From: Candidatus Oxydemutatoraceae bacterium
GTDB taxonomy: Bacteria > Pseudomonadota > Gammaproteobacteria > Poriferisulfidales > Oxydemutatoraceae
Assembly: GCA_965218975.1 (NCBI GenBank)
Contig: OZ244717.1
Coordinates: forward strand, 1,088,001 to 1,152,000
Length of the DNA: 64,000 nucleotides
Reading direction: 5' to 3'
The notes beneath the pieces are model-generated. The model was given only the letters and a program-made list of their open reading frames with translations, was not told where the DNA came from and did no database searches. This document shows, piece by piece, positions 12,418-34,783 of the stretch; position 1 is the first letter of the stretch, and every line of letters begins with the position of its first letter. Position numbers and translations under genes: made by a program.

Positions 12418-12419
12418 TC

Positions 12420-12905
12420 ATGGCGGTAACGTACTTAGACCAAAAGATCGATTCGTTGGTACAAGAACGCAAGCCCGCATCTGCCGATTGGCGCAATCGG
12501 ATTCGGCTAAAACCTAAGCGGGGACCCCTATGGCAGTCGCAACTGGATCTGACCGGTGATGCAGGTAGTGAGTTCCGTTTGATCTTTAGGCAGAACAAGA
12601 TCAACCTGCTCGACTTCTCGGTCATCCTGGCTGTTCGAGTTCCGGAGTCGAATCAGATATTCCGCCTCCGGCGTTACAATGGCAAGAGTCACGAACACAC
12701 CAACCATATTGAAGCCATCACATTTTATGATTTCCACATTCATGTTGCGGCGGAGCGGTATCAGGAGTACGGAACACGAGAGGATGCCTACGCCGAGCCG
12801 ACTGATCGTTACGGCGACTTCCAATGCGCTCTTCGCTGCCTAATTGACGATGCGAATCTCAAAGTTCCGCCTGAATCGCAGGGTGACCTTTTCGAGGAGC
12901 GCTAA
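12420..12905 (+). CDS. Hypothetical protein, DUF6978-like (His-rich HxN...HxH)
   Basis: RLRRYNGKSHEHTN...FHIH motif; abuts the following DUF1828-like gene. Confidence 0.6.
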   Translation: MAVTYLDQKIDSLVQERKPASADWRNRIRLKPKRGPLWQSQLDLTGDAGSEFRLIFRQNKINLLDFSVILAVRVPESNQIFRLRRYNGKSHEHTNHIEAITFYDFHIHVAAERYQEYGTREDAYAEPTDRYGDFQCALRCLIDDANLKVPPESQGDLFEER

Positions 12906-13685: not shown

Positions 13686-13701
13686 GACGTATCTGACCTT
13701 G

Positions 13702-13979
13702 ACGTTGAGAAGATGCGCCTCACCCGCTGGTTGAGACGTTAGGGTCACGGCGACAAGATCATCAACAAGGCATTGTGCGAGATGGATAAGGCAGTAGCGT
13801 TCGGTGGCAGTAAGAACCTTCACGATGCCAATTGCGAGACCTACAGCCTGCTCCGCTATGATACGATCGAGACACCGGAGAAGTACTGGCTGCGTTGGAA
13901 GGAAGCCGAGGCCGCCTCGGATGCTAGCGACAACCCGTTACTCCGTGAACTGGGGTAGCTTTGCGACAAGGAGCGGCTT
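13702..13979 (+). pseudogene. Second hsdR 5' remnant with the same internal deletion and in-frame stops
   Basis: WLRR*GHGDKIINKAL...KNLHDANCETYSLLRYDTIETPEKYWLRWKEAE...LLRELG*LCDKERL. Confidence 0.88.
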
Positions 13980-14014
13980 TTCAAACCTGAAACTCTGGGA
14001 AAAAAGATGACGAC

Positions 14015-15595: not shown

Positions 15596-18500
15596 GGTCG
15601 GCCAGCGGGAAATCCAAACCCAGCAAGAGGTAGTTGCCTTCTTCCGGGACACGCTCGGCTACAGGTATCTCGGTCACTGGCAGGACCGGTTCGGCAACTG
15701 CAACGTCGAGATAGGGCTGGTTGAAGACTGGCTTAAGCGCCAGGGGTGCAGCGATAAGATCATCGAAAAGGCGCTACTCGAGCTGAATAAGGTAGCGGGG
15801 TTCGGTGACGGTAAGAACCTCTACGATGCCAATCACGAGACCTACAGCCTGCTTCGTTACGGTGTGAAGGTGCAGCCGAACGTGGGCGAAAGAAACGAGA
15901 CGGTCTGGCTGATTGATTGGAAGGACCCCGCCAACAACGACTTCGCCGTCGCCGAAGAGGTGACGGTTATCGGCGAGAATAACAAGCGACCCGATCTCGT
16001 GCTCTACGTCAACGGCATTGCCTTGGGGGTGCTGGAACTAAAGCGCTCGACAGTGTCGGTGACCGAGGGCATCCGCCAGAACCTCGACAGCCAAAAGAAG
16101 GAATTCATCCAGTCATTTTTCGCCACCGTGCAGCTCGTGATGGCGGGCAACGACACCGAGGGCCTGCGCTACGGCGTGATCGGGACGTCGGAGAAATACT
16201 GGCTGCACTGGAAGGAAGCCGATGCCGACCCGGGCGCCAGCGATAAATCGCTGCTGCTCCGCGAGCTGGGGCAGCTCTGCCGCAAGGAGCGGCTGCTGGA
16301 GATCATCCACGATTTCGTCGTCTTTGATACGGGTACCAAAAAGATCTGCCGCCACAACCAGTACTTCGGCGTGAAGGCGGCGCAGGCCCGCGTGGAGCAC
16401 CGCGAGGGCGGCATCGTCTGGCATACCCAAGGCAGCGGCAAGAGCCTGACCATGGTCTGGCTGGCCAAGTGGATCCGCGAGCACGTCACAGACGCTCGGG
16501 TACTACTCATCACCGATCGCACCGAACTGGACGAGCAGATCGAGAAGGTCTTCAAGGGCGTCAGCGAGGACCTCCATCGCACGGAAAGCGGTGCCGACTT
16601 GGTGCGTGTGCTCAACACCAGCGACGAATGGCTGATCGCTTCGCTAATCCACAAGTTCGGCGCGTCCGAAGAAGGCGACGTCGATAAATTCGTCGAGGAC
16701 ATTCGCAGCCACCTGCCCAAAGACTTCCGCGCCAAGGGCGATATCTTCGTCTTCGTAGATGAGTGCCACCGCACTCAGTCCGGCAAGCTCCACGACGCGA
16801 TGAAGGCGCTGCTGCCGGGAGCCATGCTGATCGGTTTCACCGGAACGCCTTTGCTCAAGAGCGACAAGCGACAGAGCATCGAAACCTTCGGGCCGTACAT
16901 CCACACCTATAAGTACGAAGAGGCAGTGAGAGACCGCGTAGTGCTGGACTTGCGCTACGAGGCGCGCGACATTGATCAGAACATCACCTCGCAGACCAAG
17001 ATTGATCAGTGGTTTGATCTGAAGACTTGTGGACTGGCCGATGTGGCTAAGGCCCGGCTTAAGCAGCGTTGGGGCACGATGCGGAGGGTCCTGAGCGCGC
17101 GCGAACGGTTGGAAAAAATTGTCGCTGATATTCTGCTCGACATGGAGACGCGCGACCGTCTCAAGAGCGGCCGCGGCAACGCCATGCTTGTATCCGACAG
17201 CATCTACTCGGCCTGCCGTTTCTTCGAGAGGTTTCAGGAGCACGGTCTGGCGGGAAAATGTGCCATCGTCACTTCATACAGACCGGCCTGTTCGGACATC
17301 AAGGGAGAAGAAACAGGAGAAGGACTCACCGAGAAGCTGCTGCAGTACTACACCTATCGGAAGATGCTCGCCGTGCACTTCAACGAGCCGGAAGAAACGG
17401 CGATGCACAAGGTCAATACCTTCGAGAAGGAGGTGAAGAGGCGCTTCGTTAAGGAACCAGGGCAGATGAATCTTTTGATCGTGGTAGATAAGCTGCTGAC
17501 CGGTTTCGACGCTCCTCCGGCAACCTATCTCTACATCGACAAGCACATGCAGGACCACGGCTTGTTCCAGGCGATCTGTCGGGTGAACCGCCTCGACGGT
17601 GAAGACAAAGAATACGGCTATATCATTGACTACAAGGATCTGTTCCGGTCGCTTGAGAGATCAATCAAGGACTACACCGGCGAAGCATTCGACGGCTACG
17701 ACAAGGCTGACGTAGAGGGGCTGTTGAAGGACCGACTCCGGCAGGGCCGGAAACAGCTGGAGGGGGCACGCGAGGAAATCAAAGATCTGTGCGAGTTAGT
17801 TGAGCCACCGTACGACATGGAGGCCTATCTGCGTTTTTTCTGCGCGGCCGAAAGCGGCAATGTTCGACAGCTCAAGGAGAACGAACCCAAGCGGGTTAAG
17901 TTGTACAAGCGGAGTGCAGCTTTCCTACGCGCCTATGCCAACTTGGCCAACGAGATGCGCGAGGCCGGCTATTCCGATGCTGAGACTCAGGAGATCAAAG
18001 CCGAAGTGGACCACTACGAGAAGGTTCGCCAGGAGGTCAAGTTGGCCAGTGGCGACTACATTGATCTGAAGGTGTACGAGCCAGCCATGCGTCACCTGCT
18101 CGATACGTACATTCGCGCCGAAGAGAGCGAGCAGCTATCGAAATTCGACGATCTGACGCTTGTGCAACTGATTGTCGAGCAAGGCGAACAGGCGCTCGAT
18201 TCGCTTCCCGAGGGCATCCGCAAGAGCCAAAGCGCGAAAGCTGAGACAATTGAAAACAACGTCCGGCGGTTCATCATCGACAAGATGGCGGTCAACCCAA
18301 AATATTACGAGAAGATGTCGGAGCTGCTGGAAGCCTTGATCCGGCAACGCAAGCAAGAGGCGATTGACTACAAGAAATATCTGGCGCAGATCGTCAGTCT
18401 GATCGGAAAGATCAGCCGGCCGGAGACCCAAGCATCCTATCCTCCGCGCATCAACAGCCCGGCATTGAGAGCGCTTTTCGATAACTTAGATGGCTTAAAG

Positions 18501-19874: not shown

Positions 19875-22060
19875 ATGTTGTTGTGCGGTACATTTGATAA
19901 CAAATCCTCTCTTATTATCGGATTTTTCATTTTGCTGTTGTCTGCGGTGGCTTGTAGCGAAGAAAATGAACGCATTGTAGTTACCGGAAAACGCTTGGAG
20001 CGAGACACCGTCTCAGTGCAACCAATCCACGCAACGAGTGATGTTGCTGCATTCATGCATAGCATTCCAGGCGGCGGAGTTAACCTGAATGGTTCCTTGA
20101 GCGGGCTACCGCAATATCGCGGTATGTTTGGTCCCCGTCTGGGTTTTCGTGTCGAATAAAATGCATATTGCTCCGGCAGGACCGGGGTGGATGGATCCGC
20201 CATTGCATTACGTGCCGACGCCTTTGCTTGATAAGATTGAAGTAAAGCGCGGGGCGACGTCGGTAAGTCATGGTTTCGGTATTGGCGGTTATGTCGATGC
20301 TAAGTTGAAAACCAGTGAGTTTTCTACCGGTGAAAATTTTACCTCGCAAGGTAGTTTTGATTGGATGGGGCACTCGGTTGATGAAGGTTATAATGCCGGG
20401 CTAATGTGGGAATTAGCTAACCGTCGGCATCGCTTCCATTTGTTCGCCGCCCGCGACGAAGGGGATGATAGAGAATCGGGCAGCGGTGATGTCGGTAATA
20501 CCGAATACGAGCGCGATACATTTGGATTCGGTTACGGTTTCCGAAAGGAGCAAAATCATTTTTCACTGAATTATCAACGCACGAACACTGGCGAATCGGG
20601 GGTGCCGGTTCTGCCGATGGACATTCGTTTTTACCATGCGGATTTAAGTAACTTTTCTTATACGACACGGTGGGCGGAGTATGTTGTGGATTTATTTTTT
20701 GCCCGTAAGGAAATTGAACATGAGATGAGTAACTATCATATGCGTACTGCGCCTGATTTTGACAACTTACCGATTCCGGACAATCAAAAACTGCCGCCTT
20801 TCCGCGGTACGGACCGTCGTTATGCCAAAACTGTTACCGACGGCAGTGACATTTTCTTCAAGTTCAAGAGACCGCTTGTGCACGGAAGTTTGAAATGGGG
20901 CGTTGAAAGCTACAGTGACGACTATGGTATGACAGTTTTCGATCCGGATGTTTCGCTTTTCTATATCAATAATTTAAGCGATATAAGTGTGGATAAATTG
21001 AGTGTCTTTACCGAGTGGTCAGGGATGATCAGTCCGAGTTGGGAATTGACGACAGGAGCACGTTACACACACGTGCGTACTTCGAGCGGTCGGGTTGATG
21101 CTTTTCCTGCGGTTCTTGCGGACCGTGGAGTAATTAATCCGGTAACCGATAATGTGCGACAGCTGCGTGATCGCTTCAACGCTTCGGATAGAAGTAAATA
21201 CGACGATAATATCGATGTGGCGGTGGGACTGGAGTACTATTTTGACAAGCAATTAAAAGTTTTGATGAATATATCGCGCAAAACACGTTCTCCCGATTAT
21301 GTTGAGCGTTATCTGTGGATTCCGTTGGAGATTAATCCCGGCTTGGGCGACGGTAGTAACTACGTTGGAGGTCCGGGCTTGGACCCCGAGATATCTCATG
21401 GACTGGAATTTGGTTTTGAATGGCGCAATGCCGGGGCATATTTTTCTCCGCGTATCTATCATCGCCGGATAGATGATTATATTCAAGGTGTCAATGCAGC
21501 CGATGCAAGCGTTATTGCAGTCAGCAATTTGGCTAATGGCGACCCGAGCCCTAAGAAATTTGCCAATGTCGATGCGGAAATCTATGGAATTGACGCCGAG
21601 TTCGGTTATCAGTTCAGTACCGATTGGCGTTTGGATGGTTTGTTCGGTTTAGTGCGTGGTCGGCGGCGTGACATTAGCGACAATCTATTTCGGATTATGC
21701 CGCCGAAGCTAGCATTTACCGTAACCCGCGTATTTGGATATGGGAGTGTAGGCTCGGAAACGGTTATGGTTGATGAACAGGACCACCTTGCGTGCAATTT
21801 GTTGGACGCGGACAACTTAGGTGGTAATTTAGATGCTGATGCAACTCCCGGCTATATGCTGTTTAATCTTCGCGCATCATATCAATTGCAAGGAGAGGAA
21901 AATATTTTGTTAGTCGGCGGGATTGATAATATATTAGATCCGTTATTATCGTGATCATGTCGCAGGCTTTAATCGTGTTAGCGGCAGCGATGTTAAAGCG
22001 GGTGAGAAAATCCCGGGTTCGGGGCGCAACTTTTATTTGAATCTGCAGTACGAATGGTAG
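19875..22060 (+). pseudogene. TonB-dependent receptor (OprC/NosA-like plug motif) with two +1 frameshifts
   Basis: IVVTG TonB box region, QYRGMFG, GPGWMDPPLHY. Removing one A (~20155) and one C (~21940) gives a continuous ORF ending GRNFYLNLQYEW*. Confidence 0.85.
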
Positions 22061-22845
22061 CCATTGAAGATATAAGTTCGCGCCTGCCGGTTGCACTTTT
22101 TATTGTTTGCGCGAGCATTGCTCCGATCGCATTTTCCGACTCGTTGGGTACCGCAATGGAGACCGTAATAGAAAATGCTGCCGATAATACTGAATCCCAA
22201 GAACAAATTAATCAACTAGATGATGAAACACAGCGGATGTTTTCCGAATACCGAACGGTACTGGAGAAAAATCGTCGGTTAGAGGGCTATCTGATACAGC
22301 TAAAAATGTTACTAGAGGATCAGAATCAGGAAATTGCGCGCAAAGAAAGAGAGATTGCCGGCGTGAAAAATTTTGAGCGGGAGATGTTGCCTATGTTGAA
22401 CCGAATGATTATGGGATTAGAGAAGGTGATTGAAAATGATGTACCATTTTTGCCTGATGAACGTGCTGAAAGAGTAGCAAAACTTAATAAAATGATGGTT
22501 GCGTCCGACATCAATGTGGCGGAAAAATTCCGCAGGGTCATTGAGGCATATCAAGTCGAAAGCGATTATGGGAATACTATGGAAACTTATCGCGGTAGTA
22601 TTAGCACATCATCTGATAATAAAGTTGTTGACTTTCTTCGTGTCGGTAGAAATGTTTTTCTCTATCAATCACTTGACGGCAACGAGCATGGGGTGTGGGA
22701 TGCGCGCACACGTCAGTGGCAGACTCTTGACGGCCGTTATCGTACGGCGATACAAGAGGCTATCATGATTGCGCGTAAGCAAGCGGCGCCCAATTTATTG
22801 ATTTTACCGGTACAAGCAGTGCCGTTATCAGGGGAGGCACCGTGA
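22054..22845 (+). CDS. DUF3450 (TtpB-like) coiled-coil protein
   Basis: DVPFLPDER, EKFRRVIEAYQVE.DYG, VDFLRVGR. Confidence 0.85.
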   Translation: MVAIEDISSRLPVALFIVCASIAPIAFSDSLGTAMETVIENAADNTESQEQINQLDDETQRMFSEYRTVLEKNRRLEGYLIQLKMLLEDQNQEIARKEREIAGVKNFEREMLPMLNRMIMGLEKVIENDVPFLPDERAERVAKLNKMMVASDINVAEKFRRVIEAYQVESDYGNTMETYRGSISTSSDNKVVDFLRVGRNVFLYQSLDGNEHGVWDARTRQWQTLDGRYRTAIQEAIMIARKQAAPNLLILPVQAVPLSGEAP

Positions 22846-24200
22846 GACTACGCTATCGACAGTATTTATTGTCGGCATTACTTTTGAGCGTTTTGTGCTT
22901 CTGTCAAGCGTTTGCTCAAGAAGCATCTCCTCCGTTCAATAAATTATTAAATGAAGTACGCCGAATGGTAGATGCGGATAAGCAGACAAATCGCTTGCGC
23001 GAACAAGAGTTTTTACAACGCCGTGACCGACAGCACAAACTTCTGAAAGAAGCAAAAGAAAAATTGCAGGCTTTGCAGGCGAGGAGCGTCGCTTGGGAAG
23101 AACAGTTTGACCAAAACGAAGCACAAATTTCCAAACTTAAAAGCATTTATCGGCAGCGCGTTGGGGATTTCGACGAGCTGTCGGGTTTGATGGGGCAATT
23201 TGTTACCGGTCTGCATGCACAATTGACTAATTCGATGGTTAGCGTTCATATTCCTAATTGGCGGAATCGGGTGGATGCTTTGCAAAAAAAACAAGAATTA
23301 CCTCATGTTGACGATATTGAAAATTTGTGGAGATTATTTCTCGAATACATTGCCGTGCAAGGGCAATCGGTGCGTTTTCAAAGTCAAGTGTTGGAACCGA
23401 ATGGTAGCGTCGCATTGCATGAGGTGGTTAGTATTGGCCCGTTTACTGCAATTGCCGACGGGAAGTTTCTTGAGTACTTGCCTGAAGTCGAGCAGTTTAC
23501 ACAACTTGCTCGCCAGCCGGATTCACGCTACCTCTCATCTGCCGCCAAATATGTTTCGGCGAACGAAAGCTTTGTTGCCGCGCCTTTAGACCCTTCGCGC
23601 GGGGTCTTGTTGTCATTATTAATCGGTACTCCGACGCTTGAGGAGCGGCTACGGCAGGGTGGTTGGGTCGGTTATTTGATTTTGCTAATCGGAGGTGTCG
23701 GTTTGTTTGTCGGAGCTTGGCGTATTGTTGCGCTAAAAAAATTGAACCGCGGCATTCAACGACAAATGCATCAGCTTGAACAAACCGGCAATAATCCGTT
23801 GGCGCGTTTGTTTGCTGTATACCGCCAAAACAAACAAGCGACTATCCAAACATTGGAACTAAAGTTAGATGACGCCGTTATCAAGGAACTGCCCGACTTA
23901 GAAAGAGGTTTAAGCCTGCTAAAAGTGTTTGCCGTTATTGCGCCGTTATTAGGTTTGCTAGGCACTGTTACCGGCATGTTGGAAACTTTTCAGGCAATCA
24001 CTTTATTTGGCACCGGCGATCCTAAATTGATGGCGGGCGGTATCAGTCATGCGTTGGTTACGACTGCGATGGGATTGATGGTGGCGATACCCATCTTATT
24101 GTTGCATACGTACGTGTTATCGCAAAGTCGCACCATTCGCGAAATTTTGCAGGAGCAGAGTGTGGGTTTGATGGCAACACATGTAGAAAAACAGACGTGA
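22842..24200 (+). CDS. TtpC-like long MotA/TolQ/ExbB protein
   Basis: Periplasmic coiled coil, DPSRG, APLLGLLGTVTGM, GDPKLMAGGIS.ALVTT. Confidence 0.9.
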   Translation: MRLRYRQYLLSALLLSVLCFCQAFAQEASPPFNKLLNEVRRMVDADKQTNRLREQEFLQRRDRQHKLLKEAKEKLQALQARSVAWEEQFDQNEAQISKLKSIYRQRVGDFDELSGLMGQFVTGLHAQLTNSMVSVHIPNWRNRVDALQKKQELPHVDDIENLWRLFLEYIAVQGQSVRFQSQVLEPNGSVALHEVVSIGPFTAIADGKFLEYLPEVEQFTQLARQPDSRYLSSAAKYVSANESFVAAPLDPSRGVLLSLLIGTPTLEERLRQGGWVGYLILLIGGVGLFVGAWRIVALKKLNRGIQRQMHQLEQTGNNPLARLFAVYRQNKQATIQTLELKLDDAVIKELPDLERGLSLLKVFAVIAPLLGLLGTVTGMLETFQAITLFGTGDPKLMAGGISHALVTTAMGLMVAIPILLLHTYVLSQSRTIREILQEQSVGLMATHVEKQT

Positions 24201-24203
24201 CAT

Positions 24204-24701
24204 TTGGCGATGTCTGATTTTTTTGCGAGTGGTGGTCAGGTACTTGGTATTATTTTAGTTACTACGTTTGTTATGTGGTTTTTAATAGTTGAGCGTTATT
24301 GGTACTTTTTCTTTCAGAAGGGTGATGCGGTCAATAAAATTCTTATACGATGGGCGGCGATGTCTGATGCGGACACGTGGCGATTGCGCATGATTCGCGC
24401 TTGTTATATTTCACAATTCAAACAACAGGTGACTATGCGAATCGGTTGGATTAAAGTTTTGATTACGGTGAGCATGCTGTTAGGGCTGTTGGGTACGATT
24501 GTCGGCATGATTGATGTATTTGAAGGCATGATGCTAACGCAAGCAAGCGATGTGCGAGTGTTGGCGGCCGGTGTGTCGCGGACGGTGATTCCGGCGATGG
24601 CGGGTTTGGTTGCTGCTCTGTCCGGATTATATTTTTCTTTTCAGCTGGAGCAATCCGCATCGCGTGAAGTTCAAAAACTGGCAGACAAATTGACGGTGTA
24701 G
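24204..24701 (+). CDS. exbB: ExbB-like proton channel subunit
   Basis: LLGLLGTIVGMI, LAAGVS. Confidence 0.85.
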   Translation: MAMSDFFASGGQVLGIILVTTFVMWFLIVERYWYFFFQKGDAVNKILIRWAAMSDADTWRLRMIRACYISQFKQQVTMRIGWIKVLITVSMLLGLLGTIVGMIDVFEGMMLTQASDVRVLAAGVSRTVIPAMAGLVAALSGLYFSFQLEQSASREVQKLADKLTV

Positions 24702-24702
24702 A

Positions 24703-25110
24703 ATGATACGACGTCGCATTCGACATAACGAGGATGACAGCGCTGAAATTAATATCACGCCGCTGCTTGATATTGTTTTCATTATGCTGATTTTCTTTAT
24801 TGTGACCGCAAGCTTTGTTAAGGAATCCGGTATTGAAGTGAATCGTCCGAATGCGCAAACGGTAGTAACGCAGGAATCGGCAGTAATTTTTATCGCAATA
24901 GATGCGAATGATGAAATCTGGATTGATCGTCGGATAGTTGATTTGCGTGCGGTACGTGCGAATGTTGAGCGTTTACGTCTGGAAAACCCTCAAGGCACGG
25001 TCGTTATACAAGCGGATAAGCGATCAAGTAACGGCGCCTTAGTCGGGATTATGGATCAGGTGCGGCTAGCGGGAGTTGAGAGAATTGCAATTGCCGCAAC
25101 AGAGAAGTGA
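24703..25110 (+). CDS. exbD: Biopolymer transporter ExbD
   Basis: INITPLLDIVFIMLIFFIVT, VVIQADK. Confidence 0.93.
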   Translation: MIRRRIRHNEDDSAEINITPLLDIVFIMLIFFIVTASFVKESGIEVNRPNAQTVVTQESAVIFIAIDANDEIWIDRRIVDLRAVRANVERLRLENPQGTVVIQADKRSSNGALVGIMDQVRLAGVERIAIAATEK

Positions 25111-25724
25111 GCGGTCACGCTACAGCTCGTTATCTGATTGCCTTGCTATCCGCGCTGGCAATTACTTACGGTTTATTTTTTATTATGTTTCAGTTAACAA
25201 GAGGGGATAGTTACGACCTTGTGTTGCCGAACTATGATTCCTTGCGGATTGATTTTATCCGACTTCAGGAGAAAAAGGAGGAAGTTGAGCAAAAAAGACA
25301 TTTACCGGAAAAACCAAAATTTACTCAACGACCGGCGTTACCGGATTTCCCGCGACAGAACATTTTGCCGCCATCGCGGTTGGAGATGCTTCCTTTACAT
25401 TTGCCCGAATTGCCACGGTTAAATAGCGGTTTAAACCTCGGCAGCATAGGTAGCGCCGATATTACCCCCTTATATCGTGCTCAACCGATTTATCCGCTGC
25501 GGGCTCAAAGTCGCGGAATTGAAGGATGGGTCAAAGTTGAGTTTTCTATCGATAAATCCGGTAATGTAGTTAATCCGCATGTGGTTGATGCACAACCCGA
25601 AGGTATCTTTGAGCGCGCCGCTCTAAAAGCAATATCGCGGTGGCGTTATCAACCGCGGATAATCAATGGCGTCGCCGTTATGCGTGATCAAGTGCGAGTC
25701 ATGATTGAGTTTAAGCTGGAGTAG
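25107..25724 (+). CDS. tonB: Energy transducer TonB
   Basis: N-terminal TM, Pro-rich linker, PIYP..A..RGIEGWV, WRYQP. Confidence 0.92.
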   Translation: MSGHATARYLIALLSALAITYGLFFIMFQLTRGDSYDLVLPNYDSLRIDFIRLQEKKEEVEQKRHLPEKPKFTQRPALPDFPRQNILPPSRLEMLPLHLPELPRLNSGLNLGSIGSADITPLYRAQPIYPLRAQSRGIEGWVKVEFSIDKSGNVVNPHVVDAQPEGIFERAALKAISRWRYQPRIINGVAVMRDQVRVMIEFKLE

Positions 25725-25727
25725 TGA

Positions 25728-26999
25728 ATGCGGGGGGGGTATGCGGTATGGTTGATTGTGTTATGGATAGCGGTGACGGATGTTGATGCGCGTAGTAAAT
25801 TTGTTTCCGAATCGGTTTATCGTAGTGTAACAGAAGCCGATCAACTGATCGCCAAAAATCGTGAAACGGAAGCGTTGGGTAAGCTACAAAGGCTTCTGAA
25901 AAGAAACACACTGAAAGATTATGAACGTAGTGTGATTTATCGTGTGATCGGCATTATATATACTAATCTTGGGAAGGATGTCGAAGCTACTGATTATTTC
26001 GAACGGGTTTTACGCGATGCGCAGCTGTCCGAGACTTTATTGCGCCGGACCCGTCATCATTTAGCGCATGTTTATGTACAGCAGGAAAATTATGCAGCTG
26101 TTCTGACTCTTTTGTCGCCCGTGATACAGTCGCAGCAAGAACCGACCGCGCAAGAGTCGTTTTTTCTCGCCTTTGCTTACTTCGAGCTTGAGCAAACGGA
26201 ACAGTCTTTGTTATGGGCGGAACGCGCTCTAAAGTTAATGAATGAAATGAAGCCTCCCGAGCATTATTTAAGCCTCGCTATCAACTCCAATTTGACACAC
26301 AAACATTACTCGCGTGCAGCGGAATTATTGGATCGGGTCGTGTATCACTATCCTAATCGTTCGGGATACTGGCGTCAGCTTGTCGCGGTACGATTGGAGT
26401 TAGATGATGAAGCGCGAGCGCTTGCGGCAATGGAACTGGGATATTTGCAAGGTGTGTTAGTTGAAACCCATGATCTGAAAAGATTGGCAAACCTGTATTT
26501 GCAGCAGAATCTACCTTATCAATCGGCACGTATTTTTCAGAAATTACTACGTGGCGGTAATGATGAGGATTATCGTTTACACGAATGGTTGGCTATGGCA
26601 TTGAGACAAGCGCGTGAATATGCTTCGGCCATTCCGTATTTGGTTAAAGCAGCGGAGATATCGGGTGATGGAAAATTATTTCTGTATCTGGCACATTTGT
26701 ATGCCGAGCAGGAAGATTGGACGGCAGCGCTGCAAGCGGTATCTCAGGCTATTGATAAAAATAACCTTCCAAATTCGGCGGATGCACGTCTTCTACAAGG
26801 AATTATTCAGGTGCAGTTAAATCAATTTGACAGCGCCGAGCAGAATTTTCTCTATTGCTTGGGTTTTGATAAAAATCGAAAACAAGCGCTACGGTGGTTG
26901 GAGTCGTTGAGCAATATGCGGGCGAGTAGAAGCCAATGGACAGACTCTCAACGAGGGAGATCAAATACCACTCTAAAGCCTAGAATTGGCGAGCGGTAA
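25728..26999 (+). CDS. TPR protein (TtpD-like)
   Basis: Signal-like N-terminus, repeated TPR-type helices, last gene of the TonB operon. Confidence 0.8.
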   Translation: MRGGYAVWLIVLWIAVTDVDARSKFVSESVYRSVTEADQLIAKNRETEALGKLQRLLKRNTLKDYERSVIYRVIGIIYTNLGKDVEATDYFERVLRDAQLSETLLRRTRHHLAHVYVQQENYAAVLTLLSPVIQSQQEPTAQESFFLAFAYFELEQTEQSLLWAERALKLMNEMKPPEHYLSLAINSNLTHKHYSRAAELLDRVVYHYPNRSGYWRQLVAVRLELDDEARALAAMELGYLQGVLVETHDLKRLANLYLQQNLPYQSARIFQKLLRGGNDEDYRLHEWLAMALRQAREYASAIPYLVKAAEISGDGKLFLYLAHLYAEQEDWTAALQAVSQAIDKNNLPNSADARLLQGIIQVQLNQFDSAEQNFLYCLGFDKNRKQALRWLESLSNMRASRSQWTDSQRGRSNTTLKPRIGER

Positions 27000-28522
27000 T
27001 GCGGTGATACATAGTTATTGAAATCAACGCGAGCAGTTTGTTCGGTCGGAAACAGATAATTACCGCCTTTGGTTATAATTGCATAGCTGCCGTCTACAGT
27101 GGTAACGCTTTGCGTCCATTCGGATACATTTCCGCCCATATCGGCGATTTGTTTCAGTGTAACGTCAATCGGATTACTGCCGGGAGCTTGTAGCCCCGAC
27201 GGAGATGCTTCGTTGTACATTTGATTGCCCCAGGGGTAGATATACTTGCCCCGGTTCGAAGCAATGATTGCCCACTCTTCTGCTGAGAGTAGTCTTCCTC
27301 CGGCCCATTTAGCGAAAGCGTACGCCGACCACCAGTCAATGTTCGTGACCGGTTGCACGGGTTTTTGCATTTGTTGTGCCCAATCAGGCGGACGATAACT
27401 GTGCTCTTGAGGCTGATTTTCATCACCGTATAGCCCAAGTTTAGCGAACCAATCATTCAGAAAATGATCATATTGTTGACGTGTGACTTCATAGCGCATT
27501 ACATGTAATGACGTCTCTCCTGAAGTTTTTTGTTGGTTAAAAATTCGTTCGATCGTATCAATTTGTTTACGTGGAAGTTTCGCTAAAAAAATTGAGATTC
27601 TGGAATCTTCCGGGATTCCGACAGAATAACTGCCGCGACCGATTTTTGCGGTATTGATAGGGATGCGCCATGGTGTTCGTTTGATTTTTCTGTTGTAAAC
27701 ACAGCGAAATCCGACATAAGGAGAGCGATAAGAGGGCGGTGCGGTGCGATAGAATACATTCAGGTTATAAACTTCACGCGGATCATTAAAGGCATTGCCT
27801 CCGACAATTGCCGGTTCCAAAGGGGTATCCGAATTCGTTGCCCACTCCGAAACATTATTTCCCGCCATGCCGTAGATTCGCTTAGGTGTTGCGATTTCTT
27901 TATGCGCTTTGCATTTTTGTGCCGCATTCAGCAGCGGGTCTAAATATGGCAAACCCTCTGTCTGGAATGTGTCTCCCCAGGGGTACAAACGATTTTGTTT
28001 ACCGGCAGCGGCAGCAATCCACTCGGTTTCAAAGGGCAGGCGTCCGCCGGCAGCACGACAGTAGGCGTAGGCGTCGTAATATGTCACACCGTTCGCCGGT
28101 GCGTTTGTTTTCCCGCTGATCAGATGTTTTCTGGTATTACTTTCATAACGCCATTGAATGGGTTGGGTCGGTGCGGCAATATTTTTCTTTTTAACAAGTT
28201 GCTGCCAACGAGCAAATTTATAAAAATCACCTTGTCGCACTTCGCAACGATCAATGTACAGCGGACGTTGAATATTCACTGTGCGTTCTCCTCGTTTAAG
28301 CACATGGTCAAACGAGCGAATATAAGCAAATGATTTAAGGTTTTTTAACAGTACCGTATCAAAGCGTTTGCCTGTGGAATCATGTCTGTCGCGAATGACG
28401 GTGGCGATTTCAACCGTATCGAAATCATACGTCAGCGGATAAAGTCTCAGCGCTGAGGTGCCCGCTAAAGAGAGAACTATCGCGATTAATAGAGTGTTGA
28501 TGAGATGGGAGTTTTTTCTCAC
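26948..28522 (-). CDS. Tandem FGE-sulfatase (SUMF1/CLec-fold) domain protein with N-terminal anchor
   Basis: Two copies of EV, P...V, GGRL..E.EW, YPWG, M.GNV.EW and GFR motifs; likely GTG start at 28522 overlapping the upstream TGA. Confidence 0.85.
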   Translation of the reverse strand: MRKNSHLINTLLIAIVLSLAGTSALRLYPLTYDFDTVEIATVIRDRHDSTGKRFDTVLLKNLKSFAYIRSFDHVLKRGERTVNIQRPLYIDRCEVRQGDFYKFARWQQLVKKKNIAAPTQPIQWRYESNTRKHLISGKTNAPANGVTYYDAYAYCRAAGGRLPFETEWIAAAAGKQNRLYPWGDTFQTEGLPYLDPLLNAAQKCKAHKEIATPKRIYGMAGNNVSEWATNSDTPLEPAIVGGNAFNDPREVYNLNVFYRTAPPSYRSPYVGFRCVYNRKIKRTPWRIPINTAKIGRGSYSVGIPEDSRISIFLAKLPRKQIDTIERIFNQQKTSGETSLHVMRYEVTRQQYDHFLNDWFAKLGLYGDENQPQEHSYRPPDWAQQMQKPVQPVTNIDWWSAYAFAKWAGGRLLSAEEWAIIASNRGKYIYPWGNQMYNEASPSGLQAPGSNPIDVTLKQIADMGGNVSEWTQSVTTVDGSYAIITKGGNYLFPTEQTARVDFNNYVSPHYRSPILGFRVVFDLPR

Positions 28523-30282
28523 GCTGTTTTTCTGCCCCGGCGCAATACTCCTAATAATATCAGTGCGGTAATCAGTCCGTAAAACAATATTTGCCATCTT
28601 TCCTGACGAAATGGCAATATCCGATAGTCCGTTACAATTCTGAGATTAGATATTTTGAGTGCGTTTTCTGCGGATGGGATGAGCAGGTTATCTTCATCCA
28701 CCGCGGCATAAATAAACGCGGTGACAAAATCATCAAGCATCGGACTGACCAAGGTTACGACACGCCAACGAAATGTTTCGGGGCTGGCTTGTTGTGGCGG
28801 CATTAATATTAGCATGTCTTCCAACAGTGGCAACCTCAAGCCTTGATAAATCTCCGGATACAGGCTTAAGCGGCTGGTTATCTCGATTTCAGCAGGCAAG
28901 TCATAGAAGTCGGATTGATTCGGGTCGTTGATTAACGCGGCATTTTGAATGCGCTGATTGACTGCTGCCGATAAAATTCTGCCGGTGATGCTTGTATCAG
29001 TTTGTGTATTGACAAACAATGTTGCTTTTTTTTGCTCGGGAATATTTTGCACAGCGGCGCTGAGCCTTGCAAAGAATTCTTTCTCTTCCTGAGAAAAGAC
29101 TAATGAAAGGTTTGAGATGCGCTGCAAAATATCGCGGTTAAAGTTGTAGTTCGCCAATTTTGAAGTATCGGTACCGTTATCCGATGCGTTTTGCACTTCT
29201 TGCATGAAATCAAATAGCGCCGGGAGTATGGTTTTGAAGTCAACGACCGGATGCTTGCTGAAAAGTGATATTTGCTCCTTTCTTGATTGTAAGTCGGTAC
29301 TGTTAGGATCGGCGCTGCGAAAGCGGCTAAGCGTTGTTTGTTTGCGTTGTCGCGATTTACTGCCCGACATGTTTTCTTTTATCATTTGTGCCAGCGCATT
29401 AAAAACCAAATCGCTTTCTTTCTGTGTCGGATTCTTTTTCTCGCCTGATCCGGGCAAGTCGGTCGGTTCGGTAATTTCCGAAGTGCCGTTGCCGGTATCA
29501 AATGCCAAGTCGTTGTAAGGATAGTTTTCGTCGCCGATCGGTGTTGAGAGTAAAGTGGCTTGTTGAGGAATCATGCTTTGATTTTCATCAGTTAATTCTT
29601 TTAGGGTTTGATCGAAATTATCGGATGTATCTGCAATATTATTACCGCTTTGTTTCTCACTATTATTCTTTTCGTCAGTTTCATCAGGATCGTCTTTGTC
29701 ATCAAAATTTCCTTCTTGCGCAATATCATTTCCTTCGCTGCGGCTCTTTTTTTGTTTATCCGAGCCAGCTGAAAAGTGCCAGTGACGCGGCGAATGATTA
29801 TGAGATTTGAGAATTGACATCACGATATAAAACAGTCTGATACTATAGATATCAATGCGCATACGCAATAATTGCGCTTTTGTCAGACTACGGATATATT
29901 TGTCAAAGCGATTATTTTGTAATAAAAGTTCATGGCGAGGGATTCTTTTCCCGGTGTAATAGTTTTGAATATAGCCATCGTGCAATTCAATAATCGGCAT
30001 CCGCGCATGCTGAGGATTACGATCAAGCGGCGAAGTGTTATAGTCGTGTAACCGTGTCGGCGGGCTATTAGGCAGTGTGTTCATTACAACCGAATGAGCG
30101 ATTTCACGGCTTAATAGTACGGAAACGTCCTCTACTTGTTCAAGTTGTTCTTGTTCCTGTTCATGCTTGATGAAGATTGTGACGACAATCATAATGATGA
30201 TGATGGCAACGCTGTTAGCAAGAATGTCAGCGAGTGCAACACCGGCAAAGCCTGGGAATAAACTATGTTGTCGCGGATTCAT
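28519..30282 (-). CDS. Hypothetical membrane protein with N-terminal Asp-containing TM and C-terminal TM
   Basis: ALADILANSVAIIIIMIVVTIF near the N-terminus, acidic low-complexity middle, hydrophobic C-terminal helix. Confidence 0.75.
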   Translation of the reverse strand: MNPRQHSLFPGFAGVALADILANSVAIIIIMIVVTIFIKHEQEQEQLEQVEDVSVLLSREIAHSVVMNTLPNSPPTRLHDYNTSPLDRNPQHARMPIIELHDGYIQNYYTGKRIPRHELLLQNNRFDKYIRSLTKAQLLRMRIDIYSIRLFYIVMSILKSHNHSPRHWHFSAGSDKQKKSRSEGNDIAQEGNFDDKDDPDETDEKNNSEKQSGNNIADTSDNFDQTLKELTDENQSMIPQQATLLSTPIGDENYPYNDLAFDTGNGTSEITEPTDLPGSGEKKNPTQKESDLVFNALAQMIKENMSGSKSRQRKQTTLSRFRSADPNSTDLQSRKEQISLFSKHPVVDFKTILPALFDFMQEVQNASDNGTDTSKLANYNFNRDILQRISNLSLVFSQEEKEFFARLSAAVQNIPEQKKATLFVNTQTDTSITGRILSAAVNQRIQNAALINDPNQSDFYDLPAEIEITSRLSLYPEIYQGLRLPLLEDMLILMPPQQASPETFRWRVVTLVSPMLDDFVTAFIYAAVDEDNLLIPSAENALKISNLRIVTDYRILPFRQERWQILFYGLITALILLGVLRRGRKTA

Positions 30283-30287
30283 TCCGG

Positions 30288-30800
30288 TTATTTAATAACT
30301 TTCTCTATGTAAGCCGGAATATCATCCAGTGAAACCGATTTCAACAGTTCATTGTTTGCGATGATCCAGCCGATGTGCAGTAGCCGATTAGGCATAATTT
30401 CCAACATACAGTTTCGTGCCTCCGCCATGGTCGTTACACTACCTTCCAATAAGGCAAAAATTAATTGCTGTCGCTTGGCGTTGTAAATTTTTCCGGCATA
30501 TTTGACAAAGGGGCTGTTTGGCAAACAGATTTCGCCTTGCGGTATGGTTTCATTGGTTTCTATAATGCGCAGTTTGTTAGGAAAAGTGATCACCGTGTAG
30601 CCGGAACCGCTGACTCCCCAGTTTACTTTATATAGTCCTTCTTCCGAGCTTGCCTCCAATCGCTCAAGCAAAGTGGCTTGCGAGAGGACATTGATAATTA
30701 AAAATAAAACGAGTAGAAGCGCGAAGATTCCGCCAAAGATTTCAACCATAGGCGCGTTGTTTTCTTTCTGATCATTGAGGGAATCGTGATCTTTTTTCAT
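30288..30800 (-). CDS. Hypothetical single-TM protein, ExbD/TolR-like topology
   Basis: APMVEIFGGIFALLLVLFLII after a short charged N-terminus; ATGA overlap with the upstream gene. Confidence 0.7.
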   Translation of the reverse strand: MKKDHDSLNDQKENNAPMVEIFGGIFALLLVLFLIINVLSQATLLERLEASSEEGLYKVNWGVSGSGYTVITFPNKLRIIETNETIPQGEICLPNSPFVKYAGKIYNAKRQQLIFALLEGSVTTMAEARNCMLEIMPNRLLHIGWIIANNELLKSVSLDDIPAYIEKVIK

Positions 30801-31834
30801 GAGGCATTGAGCGGCATACTACGGATGTGATTTTCATAATCAATGAGCAAGCTATCTTCCCAGCGCTGTAAAGTCGTTTGTAACAACATCAGCAAAACAC
30901 TTAGCGATAGTGCAATCAATGTGGTATCAAATGCAATCCCTAAAGGCGAGATAGCTTTACCTAGCTCGGACGAAAGCTGGCCAAAATTTTGTTGGGTATT
31001 AATAATGTTTTGAATGCCGTCCGCCGCCAATGAAATTCCCAGAACTGTGCCTATGAAACCTAGTATTGGGATTGCCCAATTAATGTAGCGCGGGATGATA
31101 TAAAAGTCGGCGGATTTTTTCCATAGCAGGTCGATATAATGTTCCGGCGAAGTGGCGCCAGTGGCCTGTAGATTTTGGTAATATGTCTGTATCAACACCG
31201 ATTTCTGTGATACCGTGTTACCCGCAATCAGCTTACCTTCGCGCCAAAGAATATAAGCTTTGTTAACAACCATCAATAATCCCCAGCAGAACAGGAATAC
31301 CGTTAGCGGCGGAATGATGCCGCGATTCAAGAACTTACCGGCGATCCAATTCCATGAGGGATGGTTCAGTTGTAGATAATGAATACTCAGCAAAGCGTAG
31401 GTTGCAATTGTGATTGACATGATGAAGGTAAGTGTCGGCGGCGGCCCCGAAAAAAATACTGTCAGCTTATTCGTTACCGAGTCCTTGCGTTTAGAAATAT
31501 TTGTTTGACTTGATAACAAATATAAAATGTACAGGGCTGAAGTTGCCAGTAACAAAGGAATTGATTTTTCAACTTGTACGTTGGTGCCGCCTAATAGCGG
31601 GGCTAACGCCTGCCAAGAAATTATGGCGCTAATAATGATTAACAATGAGATGCTCGACTGTTCAACGAGTTTTACCGGCTGTTGCTTGAATACATTTTGT
31701 ATTGCCATCAAAATGGCAACGATAATTAAGCCTGCTATCAAACCATATCCAATCGGCAGAGATAGTAGATAAGCAAGACTCGTTCCGGTCAAGGCAAATA
31801 AGGCGGAGGATACGAGAGTGATTGTAAGATTCAT
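30797..31834 (-). CDS. MotA/TolQ/ExbB proton-channel family protein with extra N-terminal TMs
   Basis: WAIPILGFIGTVLGISLA and LGIAFDTTLIAL motifs, with several preceding hydrophobic helices. Confidence 0.85.
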   Translation of the reverse strand: MNLTITLVSSALFALTGTSLAYLLSLPIGYGLIAGLIIVAILMAIQNVFKQQPVKLVEQSSISLLIIISAIISWQALAPLLGGTNVQVEKSIPLLLATSALYILYLLSSQTNISKRKDSVTNKLTVFFSGPPPTLTFIMSITIATYALLSIHYLQLNHPSWNWIAGKFLNRGIIPPLTVFLFCWGLLMVVNKAYILWREGKLIAGNTVSQKSVLIQTYYQNLQATGATSPEHYIDLLWKKSADFYIIPRYINWAIPILGFIGTVLGISLAADGIQNIINTQQNFGQLSSELGKAISPLGIAFDTTLIALSLSVLLMLLQTTLQRWEDSLLIDYENHIRSMPLNAS

Positions 31835-31956
31835 AACTTCTGATGGTCGGTGAATGACTAAATAACTTAAACGTGCATTATTTATATGGGTTAAGCTGGT
31901 AATAGCTCAAGCTTATCATGACAATAAAGTTTGAATTATAGAATATATTCGCGTTA

Positions 31957-32553: not shown

Positions 32554-32639
32554 ACGAAGAAGTATAAGGCTGTTTCGATAGCGCTTTTAGATGTTCATCC
32601 GGAGAGGAGCATCATACTGTTTATCTCATAATGCTTATG

Positions 32640-32755
32640 GGCAACAGATTTATGGCTATATCGGATAGCATGGATGCAATCCGCATCTATGAAATTCCTA
32701 AGTGAATAATGAACACGTGCTTTCATCGGCGGATTGGCTTGCTTGGGATAAAAAT
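32640..32755 (+). repeat. 116-bp target-site duplication, left copy
   Basis: ggcaacagattt...gggataaaaat is repeated at 34668-34783. Confidence 0.95.
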
Positions 32756-34667
32756 CTTGACTTCGTAGGTTTTGACCTTTGGGCAAAAAATAAATCTTTT
32801 ATTATCATAGGGTTACCCGGACGCTGCCGAAAAACCCTATTGTAGTGCCCCCAGGCTTGTTTTCACTTGGATTTTAGGTTATCATTCGGGTCTATGTACT
32901 TGCGTGAAAAATATGATCCCGAACGCGGCCGCACTCGCTTGCAGATTGTGCGCTCCGTGCGCACTGCCGATGGTCCCCGTCAGCGTGTGGTGCGGCATAT
33001 CGGCACTGCCGACAGTCCCGAGCAGCTTGCATCTTTGCGCAAGCTCGGCGAGGTCACCTTGGAAGAGCTGCACCAAGCCGGTACAGCACAACAGTCGCTG
33101 TTCACACCGAAGCAGTACGCGGGTCTCGCAGCTGAGGCACGGCGCGCACCACGGCTGGCGCGCTTCGGGGTAGATCTTGCCGAATGCCGTGAGGAGATGC
33201 GGCTGATGCTTGGGGTGCGCGAGGCGTTCACGCAGATTTATTCGCACTTGGGTTGGAACCAGGTGTTGGGGGCGCGGCGCACAGTAGCGAACCGCATCCT
33301 GCGCGAGCTGGTACTGGCGCGTATCGCGCAGCCGCAGAGCAAGCGCGCTACGGTGTGCGAGCTCGAACGAAGCGGCGTTTCGCTCAATCTCGACCGGGTT
33401 TACCAGACTATGGATCACCTTGAGGAGGCGGTGATCGCACGCATCCGGGAACAGTCTCATCAGGCGGCACAGAAGTTGTATGATCAGCCCCTCAAGGTGT
33501 TCTTCTTTGATTGCACGACCCTGTACTTCGAGAGCGAGCAAGAGGACCCGTTGCGCGCGAAAGGTTATAGTAAGGACGGCAAGCCGCACCGCTGCCAGGT
33601 GTTACTGGCACTGATGACGACCTGCGACGGTCTGCCGGTGGACTACGCACTGTTGCCGGGCAACACCTTTGAGGGCAAAACCTTGATGCAGGCAGTGACA
33701 AGTCTGCAACAGAGACATCCGGGTGCTGTATTTACAGTAGTGGCCGATGCGGCGATGCTGAGCCGTGAGAACCAGACATTCCTGCAGGAGCAGGGCTTGG
33801 CCTATGTGCTCGGCTATCGTCTCAAGTCGGCCCCGGCCAAGATCAAGCTGCAGGCCCTCAGTGCAGCAGACGATCAAGGCTGGCTCAAAACGCAGGACCT
33901 GCGTTACCGGATGATTCGCCACGAAGGCCGGCGGATCATAGTCACCTATTCACGCCGGCGCGCGCGCAAGGATCAAGAAGTTCGGGAGCGCATATTGTCA
34001 CAGTTGCGCCGGAAGTATCAACGCAGCGAGCGCCCGGCAGGTTTCGTGGCGCGCGGCTATGCCTGTTACTTAAGCTTCCCCGCAAAGGGCCGGGTTAAGA
34101 TTGATGCGGCCAAGGTGGCCGATGCGGCGCGTTGGGACGGCCTGCGCGCAATCATCGCGCACGGCAACGAGGAGATGGCGCCAAAGGAATTGCTGTCGCA
34201 GTACCGTCGGTTGTGGGAAGTAGAACATTGCTTTCGCACCAACAAGCATGACCTTTGCATCCGCCCGATCTTTCACTGGAAGCCGTGGCGTATCCAGGCA
34301 CACATTGCGATCTGCTACATGGCCTTCTGCTGCTTGCAGCAGCTGCGCCGGCGGCTTAAGGCACTGGGCTTCCCGATGAGCGCGGAACGGATCCGGCGCG
34401 AGCTCGACACCTTGCAGTTGAGCATCTTGGTATGTACCGACACACAGAAGCGGTATGCGATGCCGAGCCGCGCGAGTGCGGACGCCAATAGGATCTACCG
34501 TAGTGTCGGCCTGAAATGGAACGAAGCTCCGTTCCCGCTTCCCGACAAGTCACGCCCTGGGGGAAGCTGAGCGCGGAGGGCTACAAACAACACCGTAATG
34601 TAGTGCCCTTGAGAATCCTGAAGGCAATAATATCAATCACTTACGAGACAAAACCTACGAAGTCAAG
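32756..34667 (+). mobile_element. IS1634-family insertion sequence, copy 2 (1912 bp)
   Basis: Same 19-bp TIRs and length as copy 1. Confidence 0.95.
32894..34570 (+). CDS. IS1634-family DDE transposase
   Basis: Near-identical to 5737-7413. Confidence 0.93.
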   Translation: MYLREKYDPERGRTRLQIVRSVRTADGPRQRVVRHIGTADSPEQLASLRKLGEVTLEELHQAGTAQQSLFTPKQYAGLAAEARRAPRLARFGVDLAECREEMRLMLGVREAFTQIYSHLGWNQVLGARRTVANRILRELVLARIAQPQSKRATVCELERSGVSLNLDRVYQTMDHLEEAVIARIREQSHQAAQKLYDQPLKVFFFDCTTLYFESEQEDPLRAKGYSKDGKPHRCQVLLALMTTCDGLPVDYALLPGNTFEGKTLMQAVTSLQQRHPGAVFTVVADAAMLSRENQTFLQEQGLAYVLGYRLKSAPAKIKLQALSAADDQGWLKTQDLRYRMIRHEGRRIIVTYSRRRARKDQEVRERILSQLRRKYQRSERPAGFVARGYACYLSFPAKGRVKIDAAKVADAARWDGLRAIIAHGNEEMAPKELLSQYRRLWEVEHCFRTNKHDLCIRPIFHWKPWRIQAHIAICYMAFCCLQQLRRRLKALGFPMSAERIRRELDTLQLSILVCTDTQKRYAMPSRASADANRIYRSVGLKWNEAPFPLPDKSRPGGS

Positions 34668-34783
34668 GGCAACAGATTTATGGCTATATCGGATAGCATG
34701 GATGCAATCCGCATCTATGAAATTCCTAAGTGAATAATGAACACGTGCTTTCATCGGCGGATTGGCTTGCTTGGGATAAAAAT
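34668..34783 (+). repeat. 116-bp target-site duplication, right copy
   Basis: Direct repeat of 32640-32755. Confidence 0.95.

Follow-up and report, generated by a model that had tools for sequence, protein, structure and literature searches.

A conserved four-gene cassette joining a divergent MotA/ExbB-like protein, two partners with TolR-like predicted domains and a Cys-less double FGE-fold protein: a candidate ion-driven inner-membrane machine

In a 64,000-nucleotide stretch of contig OZ244717.1 (the window; positions 1,088,001 to 1,152,000 of the forward strand, assembly GCA_965218975.1), which belongs to a Candidatus Oxydemutatoraceae bacterium, we analysed a cassette of four adjacent minus-strand genes, here called g1 to g4. 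With moderate confidence, we propose that these genes encode the parts of a single machine in the inner membrane, which would be an undescribed variant of the 5:2 ion-driven motors. To our knowledge, only a handful of 5:2 ion-driven motors are understood (flagellar stators and the Ton, Tol, gliding, type IX and Zorya systems), and each new set of motor partners has revealed a further use of membrane energy. To this design the cassette would add two unlike TolR-like partners, one of them with a dispensable carboxylate, and, as the probable output, a double FGE fold that is non-enzymatic. The genes and the region upstream of them are the following.

g1, 30797-31834, minus strand: putative MotA/ExbB/TolQ-type channel (A) subunit of 345 aa.
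g2, 30288-30800, minus strand: single-pass protein of 170 aa with a TolR-like predicted periplasmic domain (residues 59-149).
g3, 28519-30282, minus strand: two-pass protein of 587 aa with an Asp19-bearing N-terminal helix and a TolR-like predicted domain (residues 94-172).
g4, 26948-28597, minus strand: longest open reading frame, 549 aa, from the ATG at 28597.
g4 with alternative start, 26948-28522, minus strand: GTG at 28522, giving 524 aa.
Intergenic region between g1 and msrA, 31835-31956, no strand: 122 nt, with msrA divergent; presumed cassette promoter region, by position only.

The conservation of the cassette was analysed by a pattern scan of one genome per species (185,579 species), which gave 146 stretches with a g1 relative; the best 80 were analysed with their flanks, and the gene order was assigned by tblastn with the four window proteins. 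Because 67 of these 80 loci (two with an insertion) have all four genes with order and strand preserved, the co-occurrence is far beyond chance. In 7 further loci the contig ends early and the genes are in order as far as they can be read. The others comprise four loci with g1 alone and two with g1-g2-g3 and no nearby g4. Each of the four genomes with an isolated g1 has a single strong g1, and its g2-g3-g4 genes lie together elsewhere, with no g1 within about 1 kb upstream; in one of them (G001), g1 is separated from the other three genes by about 1 Mb. Where g4 is missing from the vicinity, in two genomes, it is encoded at full length at a distance of about 1 Mb in one case and 0.3 Mb in the other. 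No member has been lost in any examined genome, and all six split cassettes keep every gene. The gene-neighbourhood check that had been suggested for this cassette thus bears out a conserved four-gene order, and the tight coupling described earlier was found at each junction of the window: the g1/g2 junction is an ATGA overlap (tcATGAaa), a gap of 5 nt separates g2 from g3 (TAAccggaATG), and g3 and g4 share a GTGA overlap (gcGTGAga). Among 34 loci, a 4-nt start/stop overlap is possible at g2/g3 in 20 and at g3/g4 in 22, counts obtained with a start-choice rule that favours starts overlapping the upstream stop.

In two loci, g3 and g4 are fused into a single reading frame, which is 1118 aa long in L075 and 1134 aa long in L078. 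The fusion junction consists of two hydrophobic helices with a short Arg-rich loop between them and fits a membrane hairpin. Since the g1 genes of L075 and L078 are sisters in the g1 tree (98 in the Shimodaira-Hasegawa-like approximate likelihood ratio test, SH-aLRT), the g3-g4 fusion is probably a single event. No longer fused relative of g3 was found within 1134-3235 aa, a search range at or below whose edge the two known fusions lie. Three apparent g2-g3 or g1-g2 fusions (P0131, P0146 and P0137) resemble frameshifted or merged gene calls and were not used. Clustering of the flanking open reading frames of 81 loci gave no fifth conserved neighbour gene; msrA neighbours the cassette in 14 loci.

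The product of g1 reads as a distant, divergent member of the MotA/ExbB/TolQ family, because most of its relatives match the PF01618 model and a paralog that passes this model aligns with it. This evidence is transitive: g1 itself matches Pfam MotA_ExbB (PF01618) with E 0.0012 and 19.1 bits, under the cut-off of 22.9, and 19 of 26 aligned g1 relatives match this model at E <= 0.01 (best 8.3e-07). The paralog, a 279-aa protein, is the sole further g1 match in the 2.08-Mb genome (40% identity over residues 247-335); it scores 47.5 bits with PF01618, and profile comparison by hhalign aligns it with g1 at 97.6% and E 4.5e-12 over 78 columns. The same comparison with the ExbB encoded in the window gave a probability of 50.5% and E 1.6e-4, with AIPILGFIGTVLG of g1 paired with apllgllgtvtg of ExbB and AFDTT with alvtt. 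The Pro/Gly/Thr motif of the penultimate helix and the Thr pair of the last helix are invariant in 26 of 26 relatives, the invariant residues being P256, G259, G262, T263, D303, T304 and T305; these last two helices, with long invariant runs, are the most conserved part of the protein. Hydropathy shows about eight hydrophobic segments, of which about five precede the MotA-like part and the last three (172-192, 253-271 and 300-320) correspond to the ExbB-type helices. The distribution of Lys and Arg is compatible with both termini being cytoplasmic, a topology in which the cytoplasmic loop has only 57 residues. The hhalign results, the Pfam matches of the relatives and the hydropathy agree with the preliminary description, which had seen in g1 a MotA/TolQ/ExbB protein with extra N-terminal transmembrane segments. 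We also observed that D303 (window about 30926-30928) is an invariant Asp within the last membrane helix (AFDTT), at a position occupied by Val in the ExbB of the window and by Asn in the 279-aa paralog. This residue may be an additional ion-binding site specific to the cassette family.

The two genes downstream of g1 encode proteins whose predicted models have the same best structural match. The product of g3 shows the hallmark of a B subunit, namely a single N-terminal Asp helix and a domain with TolR as best match. Its helix motif is L-[AV]-D-[IV]-L-A-N, with Asp19 kept in 74 of 74 readable loci and with L17, D19, L21, A22 and N23 invariant in alignment A3. In the model (pLDDT 71.8), this helix is followed by a confident domain at residues 85-170 and, at about 174-283, by an acidic/polar linker of low confidence; residues 285-412 are helical, residues 420-545 are rich in beta structure, and a helix at about 559-586 ends the chain. 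Hydropathy places a hydrophobic C-terminal helix at 562-580, followed by a basic tail, through which g3 appears to re-enter the inner membrane. Both transmembrane segments attributed to g3 in the earlier account, the Asp-bearing one and the C-terminal one, were therefore recovered, as were the motifs quoted there, ALADILAN in the g3 frame and APMVEIFGG in that of g2. The models of g2 and g3 were searched against 48,161 solved chains, with the Foldseek prefilter omitted. For g3 residues 94-172, the top VIA match was E. coli TolR (5by4_A; Z 6.3, root mean square deviation 2.0 Å, 70 residues aligned), and H. influenzae TolR (2jwk) ranked 5th; the whole-model search of g3 was dominated by long-helix matches. 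A search of the ESM Atlas with residues 285-560 gave no usable match. Sequence searches of g3 gave nothing meaningful in Pfam or NCBIfam, no ExbD match at E <= 1 and nothing in the profile comparison with the PDB; against the ExbD of the window, hhalign gave 0.2%.

The product of g2 begins with the motif QExNNAPMVEIFGG, followed by one membrane helix. In its model (pLDDT 75.5) the helix leads into a beta/alpha domain, and for residues 59-149 E. coli TolR (5by4_A) again ranks 1st (Z 7.5, root mean square deviation 2.7 Å, 81 residues aligned), ahead of the next row by 1.5 Z, with H. influenzae TolR (2jwk) 4th. It is notable that two unrelated sequences beside a MotA-like gene each have, as predicted models, TolR as best match. 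No meaningful match of g2 was found in Pfam, NCBIfam or PDB sequences, and none to ExbD at E <= 1. The comparison of the g2 and g3 profiles gave 0.7%, which lends no support to a shared origin, and neither protein had an OmpA-family or vWA match in Pfam. In a full HMMER pass over 1.84 billion representatives, the g2 profile matched only 42 proteins at E <= 0.001, and the g2 family therefore is, as judged by profile searches, very small and isolated. A weak hhalign alignment (2.4%), to be taken as a lead only, pairs ExNNAPMVE of g2 with EINITPLLD of ExbD and puts Glu21 opposite the canonical Asp.

Residue 21 of g2 is Glu in 44-45, Ala in 28 and Ser in 2 of 75 loci; a single His at this residue is a pattern mis-hit in L040, where alignment A2 reads PMVEIFG. 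The acidic residue reported in the transmembrane segment of g2 is thus present in the window, but it is not a family-wide feature, with Ala or Ser in 30 of the 75 loci. The alignments suggest, for the family as a whole, one Asp-bearing partner and one with a dispensable carboxylate. The cassette represents a natural experiment on whether rotation needs both acidic residues of the axle. In loci L050-L081, as compared to L003-L049, Ala21 of g2 (PMMAVFG) accompanies Val before the Asp of g3 (LVDILAN); loci L009, L014 and L021 have Ser or Ala in g2 and yet keep LADILAN in g3. A covariation of E21/A21 in g2 with A18/V18 in g3 was considered and rejected, since it tracks one deep split of the g1 tree and is thus a single event without statistical weight.

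The product of g4 matches Pfam FGE-sulfatase in two stretches (E 1.1e-44). Among solved structures, its profile gave SUMF2 as best match (E 4.6e-19), aligned to the domain end, followed by OvsA (E 6e-17), SUMF1 (E 7e-17) and CalU17 (E 1.3e-16); PorK/GldK structures were matched with E 6.5e-11 to 7.6e-11. In both g4 domains, the profile alignments place residues other than Cys opposite the MCHRSYC segment of human SUMF1, which holds the catalytic cysteine pair of FGE, and in none of 35 aligned g4 sequences (alignment A4) is there a Cys between GGN and GFRC. As read from these alignments, g4 is without the catalytic pair of FGE and would be a non-enzymatic double FGE fold. Since its hydrophobic N-terminal helix (7-25) has no conserved lipobox Cys nearby, g4 looks anchored by a helix and not by a lipid. 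The membrane anchor and the two FGE-sulfatase domains without the cysteine pair, as first described, are supported by Pfam, by the SUMF1 alignments and by the N-terminal helix. The idea of a surface lectin-like module found no support: g4 has an N-terminal membrane helix without a conserved lipobox Cys, and g3 returns to the inner membrane. We also considered g4 as the target of a diversity-generating retroelement and rejected this candidate, since within the 64-kb window no direct or inverted repeat of at least 45 nt involves 26948-28597, which argues against a nearby template.

The matches to PorK and GldK raise the question of a transport or gliding apparatus like the type IX core, in which a 5:2 motor drives a periplasm-spanning subunit coupled to an FGE-fold protein. 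The cassette has the three elements that make up the type IX secretion system as well: motor, extended B subunit and FGE-fold protein. However, the NCBIfam GldK model (TIGR03525) gives g4 only 10 bits as compared to a cut-off of 350, Pfam and NCBIfam gave no match to GldL, GldM or GldN, g4 carries a membrane helix and no lipoprotein Cys, and no outer-membrane component is linked to the cassette. We consider this explanation rather improbable.

The motor that we favour would work as follows. The g1 protein would form an ion-conducting ring, a pentamer by analogy, and the Asp19-bearing helix of g3, probably with the helix of g2, would stand in the centre of the ring as an unlike pair. The TolR-like domains of g2 and g3 would pair in the periplasm above the ring. 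From there, the g3 linker would lead to the helical and beta-rich module and then back into the membrane, where the last helix of g3 would neighbour the one that anchors g4; the two FGE folds would hold a periplasmic or envelope ligand. Protons moving through the Thr-lined channel past Asp19 would rotate the ring relative to the axle, and this rotation would perform mechanical work on the C-terminal module of g3 and on g4. The whole assembly appears anchored to the inner membrane, because g4 has an N-terminal helix and no lipobox Cys and g3 has a C-terminal helix. The preliminary description had proposed a proton-driven motor with two B-type subunits. The channel helices of g1, the Asp19 of g3 and the two TolR-like domains are in line with this proposal; the part that did not hold is the acid, as two acid-bearing B subunits occur in one branch only. 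Most likely, the cellular job of the machine is an envelope task tied to life within sponges, and this is the weakest point of the proposal.

Several observations weigh against this motor. The Z values of the TolR matches are middling, and a Z below 8 may mean only a common arrangement; Foldseek gave no match at E <= 0.001 for either model, and profile comparisons detected no sequence kinship of g2 and g3 to ExbD or to each other. On its own, g1 remains under the Pfam cut-off, and its profile matched no PDB sequence. The g2 profile reached no ExbD-sized family among the 1.84 billion proteins searched, and g2, with its carboxylate missing in so many loci, may lie outside the pore altogether. 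No evidence from RNA or protein was found either, and the listed sequencing runs included no RNA from a holder of the cassette. Finally, the anchoring of both g3 and g4 in the inner membrane obscures what the motor would pull. The same facts could be read in terms of a membrane scaffold or sensor, in which a degenerate g1 organises g2-g4 and the FGE folds sense or hold a ligand without energy input: g1 is divergent and sub-threshold, with five extra helices and a short cytoplasmic loop, the g2 carboxylate is dispensable, and all parts are held in the inner membrane. Against this reading, the channel helices, with their long invariant runs, are the most conserved part of g1, and Asp19 of g3 and its neighbours are invariant in every readable locus, which would be difficult to account for if they had no part in handling ions. 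We therefore regard a scaffold or sensor as unlikely.

A more specific version of the motor is possible, and we put it forward tentatively, as something we would rather doubt than assert: the axle would be an obligate unlike pair of g2 and g3 with one universal carboxylate, and the cassette would be a habitat-linked, horizontally moving module that couples membrane energy to a pseudo-FGE binder. If true, rotation in the 5:2 motor class would need no two equivalent Asp residues, and the cassette would be a natural test of the alternating-site model of MotAB, ExbBD and TolQR.

The distribution of the cassette bears on this version. In the family of the window (six genera, genomes of 1.4-3.0 Mb), one g1 was found in 19 of 19 genomes, as compared to 1 of 34 in the sister families of the same order (0/17, 0/1 and 1/16). 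The g1 tree, with 80 rows, was made by a quick method with no mixture model, and many long branches were flagged. It shows two deep groups of 27 and 53 rows, with Pseudomonadales-labelled rows in each, and single rows from Spirochaetota, Thermodesulfobacteriota and Myxococcota stand among gammaproteobacterial ones. This tree fits horizontal transfer; mis-binned contigs would give the same picture, and nearly all cassette records are metagenome-assembled genomes of uncultured bacteria. No relatives of the cassette were found in viral contigs or plasmids. Oxydemutator thiolithooxidans is a Stylissa symbiont according to the available passages of PMC11685487, and Poriferihabitaceae, Porisulfidus and Azotimanducaceae, which appear in the record titles, are also named in the passages available from sponge-metagenome papers. 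The sponge link of the cassette, which rests on these taxon names, is suggestive. Retention in every genome of a symbiont family with reduced genomes, together with the scattered sponge-named lineages, points to a host-associated role.

A patchy distribution across orders, with a g1 tree that mixes taxa, is also what anti-phage defence of the Zorya kind might produce, with the cassette as a MotAB-like membrane sensor of phage attack, and g1 has weak ZorA matches (PADLOC 14.6 bits, E 0.0025; NCBIfam 12.9 bits vs. a cut-off of 100, E 0.042). We hold this to be very improbable. In fact, there is no effector or nuclease partner, PADLOC gave no match for g2-g4, g1 (345 aa) is without the long tail of the ZorA type, each of the 19 genomes of the small-genome family has just one copy of the cassette, and the search of viral contigs and plasmids gave no relatives.

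Another motor system is encoded directly beside the cassette. A canonical DUF3450-ExbB-ExbB-ExbD-TonB-TPR cluster (window 22054-26999, plus strand, by Pfam) is convergent to it, and the 3' end of g4 overlaps that of the TPR gene (25728-26999) by 52 nt. The vicinity of this cluster would suit a Ton/Tol-like transducer to the outer membrane, with g3 in the role of TonB or TolA and its linker spanning the periplasm for uptake or upkeep. TonB and TolA have linkers that vary in length, and that of g3 (about 110 residues) is predicted with low confidence and is length-variable among relatives. The C-terminal membrane helix and basic tail of g3, however, bring its far end back to the inner membrane, its N-terminal helix bears the Asp of a B subunit and is not a side-binding helix, no TonB_C or TolA-like domain occurs in g2-g4, and the neighbouring cluster does not accompany the cassette in a conserved manner, with its TPR gene present in 8 of 81 loci. 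This explanation too appears quite improbable to us.

As to the remaining surroundings, the cassette region has a G+C content of 42-46%, similar to that of the flanking sequence. A consensus scan for promoters found none in 31835-31956, where site counts equal those of shuffled sequence; over the region, promoter and terminator scans gave no excess of sites over shuffles, and no terminator-like site was found on the minus strand within the four genes. On the side of g1, a DDE_Tnp_1 transposase gene (32867-34570) lies between perfect 117-nt direct repeats (32639-32755 and 34667-34783), and the segment 32639-34783 has a G+C content of about 53%. The 300 nt at 5598-5897 share 97% identity with 32755-33054, which indicates a second copy or fragment of the transposase segment upstream. 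The region 4963-16255 is rich in G+C (54-59%) and contains many diverged direct repeats (90-300 nt, 60-77% identity) and one pair with 100% identity (5276-5575 / 7511-7810); its appearance is that of repeated gene segments.

The paralog of g1 led to another motor cluster of non-canonical type in this genome (G000:C1:1706348-1716827, which corresponds to L088 5348-15827, minus strand). It comprises a TPR protein, a 669-aa protein with PEGA and FGE-sulfatase domains in which no Cys follows the GSSW motif, the nearest paralog of g1 (the 279-aa MotA_ExbB protein), a pair of paralogs whose helices read FLDIMS and FLDVIS and which also have a coiled coil and a vWA domain, and unannotated neighbours. 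On the basis of genome analysis and AlphaFold 3, Williams-Jones et al. (Mol Biol Evol 2025; PMC12204202) predicted unlike partner pairs of the 'TPH-vWA' class for TolQ-like motors, and the MotA-like protein and the two vWA partners of the second cluster match this class. The main text of that article does not mention sulfatase, FGE, formylglycine, SUMF or sponge. One small genome thus holds twice, with different proteins, the combination of a MotA-like ring protein, two unlike partners with acidic helices and a Cys-less FGE protein, and the cassette, if it is a motor, would be one of two motor-plus-FGE designs there. The second cluster supports the FGE fold as a working motor partner and makes an unlike axle pair in the cassette more plausible. 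In the same record (L088 907-3603), we observed a gene for an L-lysine epsilon-oxidase of the LodA type beside a gene for an FAD-dependent oxidoreductase or halogenase-like protein (Pfam).

New in the present analysis are the invariance of Asp19 alongside a dispensable Glu21, TolR as top match for both partners, the g3-g4 fusion and the completeness of the split cassettes, together with a core in one family that is near-absent from its sister families, a tiny g2 family and a g1 paralog in a second motor cluster. No description of the cassette was found in the open-access main texts searched, and the available main text of a MotAB phylogeny paper (PMC12505986) contains no occurrence of sulfatase, FGE or sponge. 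The cassette fell outside the defining models of every named system with which we compared it, as the preliminary description had held, and scans of g1-g4 with Pfam, NCBIfam and PADLOC likewise found no TonB, OmpA-like or Zorya partner among them.

The closest resemblance in mode of working is to TolQ-TolR(-TolA) and ExbB-ExbD(-TonB). Like these systems, the cassette has a MotA/ExbB helix pair with Pro/Gly/Thr motifs, partners with a single N-terminal acidic helix and TolR-like predicted domains, and translationally coupled genes. The N-terminal helix with a conserved Asp that characterises PF02472 is present in g3 and, in part, in g2. The cassette differs in that g2 and g3 fall outside the ExbD model (PF02472) and are two unlike partners, one often without its carboxylate, in that g1 has about five extra helices and Asp303, in that TonB, TolA, TolB and Pal are missing, and in its output, which is an inner-membrane-anchored double FGE-fold protein. 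As regards the Ton system in particular, g1-g4 contain no TonB_C domain, and the TonB cluster next to them runs convergently and lacks conservation with the cassette; as regards Tol-Pal, g2-g4 have no TolA, TolB or Pal domain, and no fifth gene is a conserved neighbour. The OmpA-like peptidoglycan-binding domain of the B subunit of the MotAB flagellar stator is missing in g2 and g3. With respect to Zorya, membership in the ZorA and ZorB models is lacking, PADLOC detects nothing for g2-g4 and no effector accompanies the genes.

With the type IX secretion system (GldK/L/M/N, PorK/L/M/N) the cassette has in common the theme of an ion-driven motor combined with a non-catalytic FGE-fold protein, and g4 matches PorK. 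This match is one of fold alone, g1 is of the MotA/ExbB and not of the GldL type, g4 is anchored by a helix and not by a lipid, and no outer-membrane ring partner is linked. In Myxococcus, AglR-AglQ-AglS consists of one A subunit and two different B subunits, AglQ and AglS, both of the ordinary TolR type and both Asp-bearing. The cassette resembles this arrangement in having one putative A and two different putative B subunits; unlike AglQ and AglS, g2 and g3 match no ExbD/TolR model, and Glt partners are absent. SUMF2 (pFGE) has an FGE fold without the cysteine pair, as g4 does, but it is soluble, single-domain and eukaryotic, whereas g4 is a bacterial, membrane-anchored tandem within a motor operon.

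The TPH-vWA motors share with the cassette a TolQ-like channel, two unlike partners, an acidic or Asp helix and the lack of an ExbD match, and the copy in this genome stands, like the cassette, beside a Cys-less FGE-fold protein. In the partners of the cassette, TolR-like predicted domains take the place of the coiled coil and vWA domain, g3 is distinguished by its second membrane helix, and the FGE protein carries a tandem of FGE folds without a PEGA domain. Taken together, these comparisons of sequences and models suggest that the cassette would work most like TolQR and ExbBD, and that its nearest design would be that of the predicted TPH-vWA motors.

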